This document shows, piece by piece, positions 38,514-40,069 of a stretch of DNA of 41,473 nt. The notes beneath the pieces are model-generated. The model saw nothing but the letters and a program-made list of their open reading frames with translations, was not told where the DNA came from and did not search any database. The DNA comes from a virus, in IMG/VR virus record IMGVR_UViG_3300049215_000197, positions 1 through 41,473 of that record; one strand, 5' to 3'. The translations under genes were made by a program, and so were the position numbers. The number at the start of each line of letters is the position of its first letter. Position 1 is the first letter of the stretch.

Positions 38514-38924
38514 TCATTTCTTTAACCTTTGGCTTTCAAGTATAGGCAAGTTAGCCTCAGTAGGCACATATACTACCGTGCTATTGGTTTGGTTCAAGCC
38601 CTGTATCCATAGATACCTTAAGTAGCTCTCATTCTCATTAAGGGAGTTACCAATGATCTTGTTAGCTGTAGCCATTCCTTCTGCTCTTATGATCTCAGCT
38701 TCAGCTAGGCATTTAGAGCTCTCCTTCTTAGCTTCTGCTTCACATACTGCTATCTGCCTATTAGATTCGGCTCTAGCAAGCTCTCCTTTACCCATCATAT
38801 GCTGATGCCATACATGAATGAAAGGATTTACGAATTCTTGATATAAGCCTAGGCAGAATATGAATATCAGCACATTCCTTATGCATTTATACCAAAAGCT
38901 ATACTCTTCAAGCTGCTCAAGCAT
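38514..38924 (-). CDS. Membrane-anchored truncated SPFH/prohibitin-like protein (136 aa)
   Basis: N-terminal TM segment (VLIFIFCLGLY). AEAEIIRAEGMATANKIIGNSL..NESYLRYLWIQGL......VVYVP resembles only the C-terminal half of HflC/prohibitin. Confidence 0.55.
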   Translation of the reverse strand: MLEQLEEYSFWYKCIRNVLIFIFCLGLYQEFVNPFIHVWHQHMMGKGELARAESNRQIAVCEAEAKKESSKCLAEAEIIRAEGMATANKIIGNSLNENESYLRYLWIQGLNQTNSTVVYVPTEANLPILESQRLKK

Positions 38925-39697
38925 TACTTCACCATTCCTATCTCGGCCAAGTACTTAGCAGGTATAACCGTAAATGTACCCGTAAGTACCCGATTCAAAT
39001 AGAATGCTCCTGTGCAGTACATGGCATTGTAATTCTTGTGCTTCTTATACCAGCTCTCTACGTTATCGTTTAAACCCGCTATACACGCATTTATCACTGG
39101 GTGGCTAGGACATGCTGCTATGAACCCATTAGCGCAGAATATGGCCTGCTGTGAGCCAATATCGCGGGCTTTATGTTCCAGCATGAGCACAAGTCCCTTA
39201 TTGGGTATAACTTCAAAGATATCGAAATAGCTTTCATTGTAATATGGGGGTGAGAAGTCGCAATCGAGATACACGCCTCCATAGTGAGAGATAAGTTCCA
39301 TTCTGAGCACATCTGATGCCGAATGGTAATTCTTAACCGAGAGAAGGAAATTGAGCAGGATATAGTTCTCGTCGGACATGATATGCTTAAGTGCTGGTAT
39401 ATCCGCATCTGTCCAAAGACAGTAGTCATAGCCGAAGTAGGCAGCATATTGCGACCATATCTCATGGGACTCAAGCACATCACATGTAGGACTCCCGAAC
39501 CAGATTTGATGTATCGTGCGGGGTATCCTCTTCTCGAAGTACGGCAATGAGCTAAACAATAACGAGTCAGGCGTTAAAGCTTGAATCGAAAGCGCATCGC
39601 AGTTCTTGTCGTACTCAGGCAAGAGGCTTGCCCATGCTCCAACTTGCGTAGACAGTAAGAATGATAATGATAAGATAAAATTTGTGATCCATTTCAT
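38924..39697 (-). CDS. Secreted GT32-family DXD glycosyltransferase (257 aa)
   Basis: Signal peptide MKWITNFILSLSFLLSTQVGAWA. IPRTIHQIWFG and SDVLRMELISHYGGVYLDCDF (DxD) motifs. Confidence 0.65.
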   Translation of the reverse strand: MKWITNFILSLSFLLSTQVGAWASLLPEYDKNCDALSIQALTPDSLLFSSLPYFEKRIPRTIHQIWFGSPTCDVLESHEIWSQYAAYFGYDYCLWTDADIPALKHIMSDENYILLNFLLSVKNYHSASDVLRMELISHYGGVYLDCDFSPPYYNESYFDIFEVIPNKGLVLMLEHKARDIGSQQAIFCANGFIAACPSHPVINACIAGLNDNVESWYKKHKNYNAMYCTGAFYLNRVLTGTFTVIPAKYLAEIGMVK

Positions 39698-39748
39698 ATT
39701 TCCTCCTTGGAAAAGTTCAGCTTCTCAAATCGGGAAAATTATGGCAAG

Positions 39749-40069
39749 TCAAAAGAAGGGGTATTCCTGATATGCGGGGGTCTTGTCTGTAACTTCAGTT
39801 ATAGCCTTATCAGGCTGTGGCTCACGATATGGCTCTAATTCTTCTTTAGAAGGCTTAGGTAATAAGCATGGGCAACATGAGTATAGTATAGGGGGTATCA
39901 TGTAATGTCTCCTACATGGGCAGTTAATCGAGTGCTGAGGGCATTCTATCGTATAGAGGTGTCCATCGTATTCTAAGTAGAACATATTCTCAAATGGCCA
40001 GATAGTGACTTGTATCTTGTCATTAGCTGCAAGGGGGAAAAAGAAAAGGAGCCAGAAGAAATATCTCAT
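39749..40069 (-). CDS. Secreted Cys/Pro-rich protein (106 aa)
   Basis: Signal-like N-terminus MRYFFWLLFFFPLAA. Cluster CPQHSINCPCRRH...SCCPC. Confidence 0.55.
   Translation of the reverse strand: MRYFFWLLFFFPLAANDKIQVTIWPFENMFYLEYDGHLYTIECPQHSINCPCRRHYMIPPILYSCCPCLLPKPSKEELEPYREPQPDKAITEVTDKTPAYQEYPFF

Follow-up and report, generated by a model that had tools for sequence, protein, structure and literature searches.

The window analysed here, a stretch of 41,473 nucleotides, holds the genome of a complete phage (41.3 kb, 127-bp direct terminal repeat, 100% complete), which is integrase-bearing, podovirus-like and temperate. Beyond its last tail-fibre gene lies a tight block of five minus-strand genes, and our results support the view that these genes are accessory cargo of the moron type at a variable module boundary. 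One of them encodes a predicted exported glycosyltransferase of a family that is concentrated in Chlamydiota and hugely expanded there. The explanation we propose, to which we give about even chances, is that the block is the moron cassette of a chlamydia-phage, and that its exported glycosyltransferase would alter the glycan interface of the bacterium by lysogenic conversion.

A five-gene block at a variable junction

The block follows the last tail-fibre gene on the same strand and ends at a two-way terminator that it has in common with a convergent operon for an exonuclease and an Erf annealase (Table 1). Segments of the tail-fibre gene have relatives that are 37-77% identical and located in tail modules. 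The Erf annealase has no close relatives in IMG/VR. The original prediction described three ORFs within 38514-40069; all of them are present on the minus strand and encode 106, 257 and 136 aa, and two small ORFs complete the block. The 106-aa ORF has a GGAG 6 nt ahead of its ATG, and the 257-aa ORF an AAGGAGG ahead of its own. The stop codon of the glycosyltransferase gene and the start codon of the 136-aa ORF overlap in TAATG, and the start of the 41-aa ORF overlaps the stop of the SPFH-like gene (ATGA). The annotated frame gives the best codon score for every gene of the cassette, while the codon usage of the Cys-rich ORF and of the glycosyltransferase fits the phage less well than that of the core genes. 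A scan for promoters and terminators found the terminator downstream of the cassette, no convincing promoter upstream of it, and, in the spacer behind the tail-fibre gene, neither a terminator nor a sigma-70-like promoter match. No promoter of its own was detected for the block, which looks like a continuation of the late operon at its 3' end.

Table 1. Features at the junction between the tail-fibre gene and the recombination operon, in window coordinates.
Feature	Position	Strand	Basis or remark
Last tail-fibre/tailspike gene	40107..41473	-	ORF open at window end; runs over the linearisation point into bases 1-323
Spacer, tail-fibre stop to Cys-rich ORF	40070..40106	-	37 nt, from sequence
Orphan 106-aa Cys-rich protein	39749..40069	-	ORF
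257-aa GT-A (GT32-like) DXD glycosyltransferase, predicted exported	38924..39697	-	Pfam, AlphaFold, Foldseek, family invariants, leaders
136-aa SPFH-derived membrane protein, phrog_11227	38514..38924	-	PHROG, QmcA/prohibitin-2 homology, AlphaFold
41-aa single-TM peptide	38392..38517	-	ORF and sequence
43-aa basic protein, phrog_2423; final gene of the block	38298..38429	-	phrog_2423, E 3.2e-18
Two-way intrinsic terminator hairpin	38289..38310	.	Terminator scan positive on both strands, and sequence
Convergent recombination operon (PD-(D/E)XK exonuclease and Erf annealase)	37058..38286	+	Pfam and PHROG matches

The recombination operon forms the opposite side of a junction whose content varies. 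In relatives, this place is occupied by other small exported orphans, in which a Pfam search found no families. Since such orphans recur at the same junction, moron status for the cassette genes is supported, in line with the original prediction of cargo downstream of receptor-binding genes. A nucleotide search of GenBank phages returned no match to the cassette, and none of its proteins matched the PADLOC defence models. The glycosyltransferase forms a cluster with one member on one contig, and nothing more than 47% identical to it was found in the protein collections searched. Dozens of relatives exist at the level of TerL (69-86% identical), and the rarity of the glycosyltransferase is judged from the protein collections. 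The three phage-borne copies (in the window and in contigs L003 and L004) all abut tail-fibre genes but differ in the operon to which they are attached: the one in L003, a related phage contig, stands at the end of the recombination operon instead.

Fold, leader and family of the glycosyltransferase

Motifs, profile match and structural model make us confident that the 257-aa protein is a GT-A DXD glycosyltransferase. The two GT32 motifs that had been read from the sequence are present, IHQIWFG at residues 62-68 and GGVYLDCD at residues 140-147, with ASDVLR at residues 127-132 between them. PF04488 (Gly_transf_sug) matches residues 88-150 with 40 bits (cut-off 23; E 6.6e-10), a result that was repeated on the genome. 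The nucleotide-sugar and metal motifs are all intact (W66, D129/R132, Y143, D145-x-D147), with D129, R132, Y143, D145 and D147 each at least 90% conserved among 36 relatives, and by these residues the enzyme is predicted to be catalytically intact. The AlphaFold model (pLDDT 94.6, pTM 0.87) upholds the anticipated DXD fold: Foldseek retrieved GT-A enzymes at probability 1.00, including Och1 (9n3s), and the best solved structures were YeGT (E 9e-11), PaTox-G, SetA and Och1, the first three with E values from 9e-11 to 7e-9. The protein resembles the enzymes of GT32/PF04488 (Och1-type mannosyltransferases, IPC mannosyltransferase, A4GALT) in its GT-A fold, in the HQIW, ASDxLR and GGxYxDxD motifs, and in having an N-terminal hydrophobic segment before a lumenal-type catalytic domain. 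Unlike these enzymes, it has only about 235 mature residues, is of bacterial or phage origin, bears the motif LLPxYDxxCD specific to its own family, and has a cleavable-looking leader where they have a Golgi signal anchor.

The leader was called from hydropathy, from AXA and lipobox patterns, and from conservation. It would comprise residues 1-23, ending in AWA ahead of a serine, and is followed by LLPEYDKNCD, the form that the family motif takes in this protein. A hydrophobic N-terminal segment is found in 31 of the 39 full-length close relatives, with AXA-type leaders and, in some, lipobox variants, and the motif LLPxYDxxCD / YPDFD is conserved past the predicted cleavage site; distant homologues lack the leader. 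These patterns mark the leader as a conserved and cleavable-looking trait of the family, from which we infer export by the Sec pathway. All three larger proteins of the block had been expected to carry an N-terminal signal or anchor, and each does have a hydrophobic start. The rule applied here was set loose on purpose and flags 15 of the 71 ORFs of the window (21%), so that three consecutive ones have p ~0.009.

An export leader on a Leloir-type enzyme would require a pool of donor outside the cytoplasm, which is sensible only in an intracellular host. A precedent exists in Chlamydia trachomatis, whose secreted glycogen enzymes draw on UDP-glucose of the host within the inclusion lumen (PMC4829429). 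They show that a bacterial enzyme of the Leloir type can act outside a chlamydial cell, with nucleotide sugar that has been imported from the host. Their route is type III secretion and their product glycogen, whereas the enzyme of the window has a Sec-type leader and a GT32-like fold, and both its organism and its compartment are putative.

The profile of the glycosyltransferase family matched 173 of the 400 sampled Chlamydiota genomes (43%) against 2 of 391 in Pseudomonadota (0.5%), and the copies in Chlamydiota often form tandem arrays. The only named close members belong to a Parachlamydia sp. MAG, a Chlamydiota MAG, and the microsporidian Nematocida. In the tree, the glycosyltransferase of the window falls inside a clade holding chlamydial chromosomal genes, and one subclade of the family comes from high-GC organisms. 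A scan of the named genome collection gave no match to peptide patterns of the three closest glycosyltransferases, nor to the degenerate pattern ASDxxR-x7-GGxYxDxDxxxP, which was made by hand to exclude toxin-type DxDxxP loops. Giant viruses and further uncultured tailed phages encode DXD glycosyltransferases as well.

Chlamydial paralogues adjoin leader-bearing Sulfotransfer_1, NodZ/FUT8-like, GH130 and CAP59-type genes. In the Parachlamydia MAG, one paralogue and the end of an ABC-2 type permease gene overlap, and a type II secretin gene is found in the vicinity of one chlamydial copy. Because the paralogues have sulfotransferases and fucosyl-/mannosyl-transferase-like genes as neighbours, a glycan acceptor appears to fit better than a toxin-type protein target.

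The SPFH-like protein and the orphan genes

The 136-aa protein had been described as a truncated SPFH protein, reduced to an anchor and the C-terminal helical half. Its architecture is as described, with a single TM segment around residues 17-37, a long helix of the coiled-coil type, and a conserved C-terminus VVYVPTEANLPILE. The profile aligns to QmcA over residues 185-281 of 305 only (E 1.4e-5) and to the coiled coil of prohibitin-2 (E 1.7e-5). AlphaFold models a single long helix (2-97), with which Foldseek returned nothing informative. The truncation, in contrast, did not stand. The protein matches phrog_11227 over its full length (E 1.1e-45, residues 13-135 on profile positions 10-133 of 138). 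Pfam gave no match to the SPFH alpha/beta domain (Band_7, PF01145), and this domain is missing throughout the phage family. The gene is an intact, independent member of a widespread phage family. We counted 65 IMG/VR loci and 83 GenBank phages with such a gene, in many different contexts and in viruses of hosts ranging from enterobacterial to cyanobacterial and haloarchaeal.

Like QmcA, HflK/C and prohibitin, the SPFH-like protein has an N-terminal anchor, a coiled-coil stalk and a C-terminal strand, which are the parts that form the SPFH oligomeric cage; unlike them, its family does without the alpha/beta domain. The database labels "protease" and "membrane protease subunit" are inherited from HflC, and "protease" is a mislabel for this phage family. 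Some members are lipoproteins, and the domain would therefore lie in the periplasm. In Salmonella phage SPN9TCW, the gene stands alone and in reverse orientation, with terminase on one side and portal on the other; further phages have it among their replication genes, and in three relatives (L017, L018, L033) it is found amid small single-TM, holin-like ORFs. The architecture is similar to that of an i-spanin, an identity that we rejected given the sequence homology to QmcA and prohibitin and the SPN9TCW gene, which has no lysis genes in the 6.5-kb stretch around it. Phages of the SPN9TCW type have a separate lysis cassette.

The 106-aa protein has a hydrophobic leader (MRYFFWLLFFFPLAA), a CP..CPC..CCPC cluster and a Pro/acid-rich tail, with 6 Cys and 14 Pro in all. 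It has no match in Pfam, PHROG, NCBIfam or PADLOC, no close relative in IMG/VR, and none found by phmmer in all ORFs of ~1 Mb of related loci. It is thus a lineage-specific orphan, and its leader predicts export. The 41-aa TM peptide has a weak LapA_dom-like match, below the cut-off, and small TM ORFs are likewise found downstream of the SPFH-like gene in relatives. The 43-aa basic protein carries the phrog_2423 motif GRPQKQAVAIAL; in L011 and L012 its homologues are neighbours of the SPFH-like gene, and in L086 they lie among tail genes.

Probable host and proposed role of the cassette

We consider that the host is probably a member of Chlamydiota. A chlamydia-like intracellular bacterium is the most likely one because the glycosyltransferase family is greatly expanded in this phylum, with Golgi-like glycan neighbours. 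A syntenic contig of genome size (40.7 kb) belongs to a chlamydial MAG, a prophage remnant lies within a chlamydial contig of 125 kb, and a chlamydial chromosome of 2.1 Mb has an SPFH-like gene that is 72% identical at the nucleotide level. TerL has matches in 47 of 401 Chlamydiota genomes (best identity 47%) against 17 of 391 Pseudomonadota genomes, where identities reach 38-41% (best 41%). To our knowledge, the phages on record for Chlamydiota are Microviridae and phage remnants only.

It is possible, and we take the possibility seriously while holding it for the less probable case, that the host is not a chlamydia: it could be a member of Dependentiae, or another protist-associated or free-living bacterium, and the phage would have acquired the glycosyltransferase horizontally. 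The link to Chlamydiota would then be uninformative on where the enzyme works. The closest relatives by TerL (69-86% identity) are all metagenome contigs, the chlamydial TerL identity is 47% at most, with no closer prophage (TerL above 47%) in the 401 sampled Chlamydiota genomes, and the glycosyltransferase family includes the high-GC subclade. Against this stand the very uneven distribution of the family between Chlamydiota and Pseudomonadota, the syntenic contig and the prophage remnant in chlamydial sequences, and the SPFH-like gene of the chlamydial chromosome.

Under the explanation we propose, the phage would infect a chlamydia-like intracellular bacterium and carry its moron-type cassette at the point of convergence between the late tail-fibre and recombination operons. 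In lysogens or infected cells, the glycosyltransferase would leave the bacterial cytoplasm via Sec, and once outside may move a sugar from a host-derived nucleotide sugar onto a glycan or glycolipid acceptor of the bacterial surface, the inclusion or another host compartment. Lysogenic conversion would thus affect the glycan interface of the bacterium. The membrane-anchored, periplasmic coiled coils of the SPFH-like protein may assemble into inner-membrane SPFH-type cages, or interfere with them. The fuller claim, that environmental Chlamydiota have a complete, temperate tailed phage which shuttles an exported Golgi-like glycosyltransferase that uses host nucleotide sugar outside the bacterial cytoplasm, is made only tentatively, and we place it on the unlikely side.

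Phage-borne genes that modify glycans are a classic route of lysogenic conversion, and the known ones work with lipid-linked sugars and membrane GT-C enzymes. In P22-like phages, the seroconversion genes adjoin the tailspike gene, and O-antigen modification genes of this kind are found by the tailspike and the attachment site. The gtrABC systems of P22, SfV and epsilon15 resemble the cassette in being accessory glycosylation genes of temperate phages, located beside receptor-binding genes, present or absent among relatives, and expected to change a surface glycan. They combine a cytoplasmic GT2 enzyme (GtrB), a flippase (GtrA), a periplasmic GT-C enzyme and a lipid-linked sugar, whereas the cassette has one soluble GT-A enzyme of the Leloir type with an export leader. 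Searches of its five proteins with Pfam, PHROG and NCBIfam matched no GtrA flippase, GtrB GT2 or GT-C enzyme.

The original prediction had proposed a special case of our preferred explanation, namely that the enzyme decorates the surface glycan of the lysogen that serves as receptor for the tail fibre, and so blocks superinfection. The precedent of P22, the tail-fibre genes next to all three phage-borne copies, and the chlamydial paralogues that cluster with glycan-building enzymes, one of them at the end of the ABC-2 type permease gene, point in this direction. We nonetheless regard receptor masking as rather unlikely: the cassette holds no partner of the GtrA, GtrB or GtrC type, and adjacency to the fibre gene may be neutral because the same position in relatives is a dumping ground that generally collects unrelated small exported orphans.

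A toxin-like effector, which would reach the eukaryotic cytosol and mono-glycosylate a protein there, for instance a small GTPase, in the manner of YeGT, PaTox-G or SetA, seems to us distinctly improbable. These protein-glycosylating effectors are the top matches among solved structures and share with the enzyme of the window the donor-binding core, the DXD motif, and the format of a small stand-alone GT-A enzyme from eukaryote-associated bacteria. The TM-scores are just 0.43-0.48, however, at 15-18% identity, and the glycan-acting fungal Och1 does about equally well. The likeness to the TcdA/TcdB type that had been noted in the motif region holds for the donor-binding core and not for the rest of the domain. 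For lymphostatin and the DXD region of large clostridial toxins, sequence matches reach E ~1e-4, but PF12919 (TcdA_TcdB) covers only the 35-residue DXD loop (residues 121-155 on profile positions 167-201 of 382), the NCBIfam Efa1/LifA model reaches 22.8 bits where its cut-off is 4000, and TM is ~0.2 against the toxin domains when normalised by target. Neither the length of the protein nor the structural alignments revealed helical subdomains of the large clostridial toxin type around the GT-A core, with which those toxins bind their GTPase substrates and the membrane, and no target-recognition elements are evident. We know of no minimal glycosylating effector with a Sec leader. The occurrence of the family in obligate intracellular parasites (Chlamydiota and Nematocida) and the copy close to a type II secretin gene would suit an effector, while genomic neighbours of the glycan-enzyme type argue against one. 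YeGT/YkGT, PaTox-G and SetA, unlike the enzyme of the window, are not known to have a Sec leader, and they act on a tyrosine of Rho-family proteins or on other host proteins. In YeGT, the N-terminal 16 residues serve translocation (PMC11152714).

A late function, in which the end of the late operon would supply an enzyme modifying virion or envelope components at assembly and TM proteins (SPFH-like and small) for lysis timing or membrane disruption, is very improbable: it would suit the uninterrupted passage from tail-fibre gene to cassette, the holin-like surroundings of the SPFH-like gene in three relatives, the DXD glycosyltransferases of other viruses, and the finding of no peptidoglycan hydrolase domain or recognisable endolysin in 38 scanned ORFs of the window, but the conserved leader would take the enzyme out of the cytoplasm where virions assemble (on which ground we rejected virion glycosylation), the L003 copy is attached to an early recombination operon, the SPFH-like gene of SPN9TCW stands alone and others sit among replication genes, and the candidate TM lysis genes of the window are elsewhere, at 23.6-24.5 kb.

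The presence in a phage cassette of an enzyme family expanded in Chlamydiota suggests that tailed phages move exported glycosyltransferases between chlamydia-like bacteria. If the host assignment holds, the genome would provide a handle on the tailed phages of these bacteria, which could serve as a genetic tool, of a kind rare for obligate intracellular bacteria, and as a factor in their ecology, and it would be evidence that the large families of exported glycosyltransferases in chlamydia-like bacteria are mobile. Phages would then be vectors of these expanded enzymes for glycosylation at the host interface, and a microsporidian has also received one of them. The glycosyltransferase of the window, a small, single-gene and readily expressed member of the family, lends itself to direct tests of export, donor and acceptor.

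Genome organisation and the cargo block

The genome is 100% complete, with a 127-bp direct terminal repeat and a unique length of about 41,346 bp. PHROG scans identified its late genes on the minus strand, a tyrosine integrase and several further genes (see table). The late operon extends to base 1 and wraps round to position 41473, and the portal shares no more than 22-24% identity with its counterparts in cultured phages. The window TerL has no intein. Several of its close relatives (among P0171, P0178, P0190 and P0196) are 586-768 aa long with intein, Hint or LAGLIDADG domains (PF14890, PF14528, PF01079), which indicates that inteins interrupt TerL in this phage group. 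The candidate lysis genes are small TM proteins only; their relatives have a KKHxDT-type motif, are paired in related phages and sometimes adjoin an SPFH-like gene.

Features of the phage genome and its cargo block
Feature	Positions	Strand	Remark
Major head protein	13130-14080	-	Late gene, PHROG scan
Portal	16909-18870	-	Late gene, PHROG scan
TerL	20851-22182	-	Late gene, PHROG scan
Candidate lysis genes	23616-24528		Small TM proteins
tRNA-Asn	26794-26867
Tyrosine integrase	31344-32249		PHROG scan
Integrase gene 3' end	32065-32228		Segment with chlamydial matches
ParB-like protein			PHROG scan
RusA			PHROG scan
DnaB-like helicase			PHROG scan
Exonuclease/Erf pair	37058-38286	+	PHROG scan
Hairpin terminator	38289-38310		Read from both strands
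Basic protein	38298-38429	-	43 aa
TM peptide	38392-38517	-	41 aa
SPFH-like protein	38514-38924	-	136 aa
Glycosyltransferase	38924-39697	-	257 aa
Cys-rich protein	39749-40069	-	106 aa
Tail-fibre proteins	last gene ends at 40107	-	Late genes, PHROG scan

The original prediction placed three cargo genes beyond the tail genes. All three exist on the minus strand just as stated there, within a single tight block of five that also encodes a TM peptide and a small basic protein. The latter belongs to phrog_2423 (E 3e-18), a conserved tiny phage protein that adjoins the SPFH-like gene in loci L011/L012 (5685-5837) and lies amid tail genes in locus L086 (6549-6710). A scan of the 37-nt spacer after the tail-fibre stop found no terminator. 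The Cys-rich ORF and the glycosyltransferase gene each have an upstream Shine-Dalgarno sequence, the glycosyltransferase gene overlaps the SPFH-like gene by TAATG, and the SPFH-like gene overlaps the TM peptide by ATGA. The hairpin terminator at the end of the block, when read from the opposite strand, also ends the convergent exonuclease/Erf operon. Codon scoring prefers the annotated frame for every gene of the block, and codon adaptation to the phage is about 0.0 bits per codon for the Cys-rich ORF and the glycosyltransferase, versus 0.24-0.31 for core genes.

All three proteins start with a hydrophobic segment, a coincidence expected for three consecutive ORFs with p ~0.009 under a loose, permissive rule that flags 15 of the 71 window ORFs and is no substitute for SignalP. 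At the same junction, between the last tail-fibre gene and the exonuclease/Erf operon, relatives of the phage encode different small proteins, either orphans with a leader or lipoproteins, and none of these exported orphans matches a Pfam family. This variety supports the view of the junction as a hot spot for exported cargo, and the genes keep the cargo status first proposed for them. Judged by its lack of matches in four profile libraries, in IMG/VR and in about 1 Mb of related loci, the Cys-rich protein is an orphan.

The SPFH-like protein

This protein, previously described as a truncated SPFH protein, indeed lacks the SPFH domain. The truncation does not stand: it matches over its full length an intact family of short phage proteins, phrog_11227 (E 1e-45), with relatives in 65 IMG/VR loci and 83 GenBank phage records. 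Carriers include Salmonella phages SPN1S/SPN9TCW, Klebsiella and Erwinia jumbo phages, Synechococcus phage S-PM2 and haloarchaeal viruses, in mutually unrelated contexts (in one case alone and in reverse orientation between the terminase and portal genes, elsewhere among replication genes). Members begin with either a TM segment or a lipobox, continue as a long coiled coil and end in an invariant C-terminus, Y..VYVPTEANLP. The family profile aligns to residues 185-281 of the 305 of QmcA (E 1.4e-5) and to the coiled coil of prohibitin-2, and the monomer model has one helix at residues 2-97 followed by a short second one. The protein is therefore derived from SPFH proteins, retaining wall and lid of the cage without the SPFH domain, and the absence of this domain is the design of the family.

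SPFH proteins have been included in listings of phage morons. In some relatives of this phage the gene lies amid small single-TM ORFs. A role at the membrane is plausible: the protein might interfere with host SPFH/FtsH assemblies or mimic them, keep out incoming DNA, or act in lysis timing.

A putatively exported glycosyltransferase and its family

The predicted DXD glycosyltransferase fold was borne out by a PF04488 score above the Pfam cut-off and by an AlphaFold model built on 36 relatives (mean pLDDT 94.6, pTM 0.87). The best Foldseek matches in the PDB are YeGT (E 9e-11), PaTox-G, SetA and the fungal Och1; among predicted viral structures, glycosyltransferases of giant viruses and, in a few cases, of uncultured tailed phages come closest. 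The proposed resemblance to TcdA/TcdB holds at the donor site and not beyond it: the PF12919 (TcdA_TcdB) and Efa1/LifA models match only the short DXD loop, and large-toxin domains rank next in Foldseek, with TM ~0.4 by query and 0.2 by target. The donor-binding residues of the clade are intact, namely W66 (IHQIWFG), D129 and R132 (ASDVLR), Y143 and D145-x-D147, and they are at least 90% conserved across the family. On this evidence, the enzyme looks active.

Its leader (MKWITNFILSLSFLLSTQVGAWA, with predicted cleavage before S) combines a basic n-region with a moderately hydrophobic core plus an A-x-A site, and a conserved LLPxYDxxCD motif comes after the predicted cleavage point. The leader of the original prediction holds: 31 of 39 full-length close relatives have such a segment, several with lipobox variants; more distant homologues have none.

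HMMER, run exhaustively over 1.84 billion representatives, gave 38 clusters with E <1e-30, and a word-indexed search of 5.8 billion proteins just two near 45% identity, P0002 and P0003. The gene of P0003 lies on a 36.6-kb phage contig after exonuclease/RecT genes and convergent with tail-fibre genes; that of P0002, on short contigs, is likewise convergent with tail-fibre-like genes. P0002 (contig L004, 35-982), the closest relative of the window glycosyltransferase, ends in a 60-residue Cys- and Lys-rich extension absent from the window protein, whereas the window has a separate Cys-rich ORF upstream. The sole named close members are from a Parachlamydia sp. MAG (MCE5317959.1), a Chlamydiota MAG (MEM8628957.1) and Nematocida sp. 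LUAm3. In a sample of Chlamydiota centred on the Parachlamydia MAG, the family profile matched 173 of 400 genomes at E ≤1e-15, frequently as tandem arrays, and none of the small genomes of 1.0-1.2 Mb. The same search in Pseudomonadota matched 2 of 391 genomes, one being the centre of the sample, picked for having a match. Nearly all chlamydial paralogues start with a leader, after which comes a YPDFD-like motif. In the maximum-likelihood tree, the window protein pairs with P0002 (support 91/88) inside a clade with chlamydial chromosomal genes, and the Nematocida protein nests next to a chlamydial one (97/90), which suggests transfer between intracellular parasites. This microsporidian has several identical copies of the leader-bearing member (P0032, four accessions).

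Probable acceptor and probable host

In chlamydial genomes, the glycosyltransferase paralogues have neighbours that likewise bear leaders and belong to glycan chemistry (loci L121, L123, L126, L098 and L119). They comprise Sulfotransfer_1 proteins, found in three genomes, along with one NodZ/FUT8-like protein, one GH130-like protein and one mannosyltransferase of CAP59 type, and amount to a group of eukaryote-like glycan enzymes that have export signals. The glycosyltransferase gene of the Parachlamydia MAG overlaps an ABC-2 permease gene. With such neighbours, a glycan or glycolipid acceptor would fit better than a toxin-type protein target. A Leloir enzyme that works outside the cytoplasm requires a donor pool there; in Chlamydia trachomatis, host UDP-glucose is imported into the inclusion lumen and used there by secreted bacterial enzymes (PMC4829429). 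Masking of the receptor is one among several candidate roles for the glycosyltransferase.

The origin of this family counts for a chlamydia-like host, as does the lack of any peptidoglycan hydrolase domain in the 38 scanned window ORFs, which include all large virion proteins. A 40,745-bp contig of a chlamydial MAG (G254:C19, loci L117/L118) is syntenic with the window (TerL 42%, portal 28% and major head protein 33% identical), and also matches its tail-fibre genes, its ParB-like gene and one large virion protein. Further arguments are a TerL and portal fragment within a 125-kb chlamydial contig, the number of TerL matches (47 of 401 Chlamydiota genomes, best 47% identity, versus 17 of 391 Pseudomonadota, best 41%), and an SPFH-like gene (72% nucleotide, 60% protein identity) in a 2.1-Mb chlamydial chromosome, inside an integrase-primase-TerL-like element. 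Against such a host, no close prophage was found among the 401 sampled Chlamydiota genomes, and the closest TerL relatives (69-86% identity) are metagenome contigs. On balance, we lean towards Chlamydiota as the host of this phage.

Chlamydial plasmids are reported to bear phage-derived genes (terminase, tail tip), and a genomic island of Protochlamydia to contain a terminase; these studies describe no complete tailed phage (PMC7846284, PMC5010888). The syntenic 40,745-bp contig is a candidate for one associated with Chlamydiota. The chromosomal element (L133, G046:C1:716000-735999, at about 8100-17900) runs from an integrase, through a 627-aa primase-like ORF, a 154-aa ORF, a 499-aa TerL-matching ORF (34% identity) and an HNH protein, to the SPFH-like gene. 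About 40 of the 401 Chlamydiota genomes have a similar ORF of some 500 aa matching the C-terminal nuclease half of TerL only (45-50% identity), and the element looks like a widespread satellite-like or domesticated one. One chlamydial genome matches the window tRNA-Asn at 84% over 56 nt, and two match the 3' end of the window integrase gene at about 70%; neither match is strong enough to place an attachment site.

The observation behind the original prediction is thus confirmed and its interpretation upheld in part. What the present analysis adds is a putative connection with families of exported glycosyltransferases in chlamydia-like bacteria, together with a likely host for the phage, both of which we infer from distribution and synteny.
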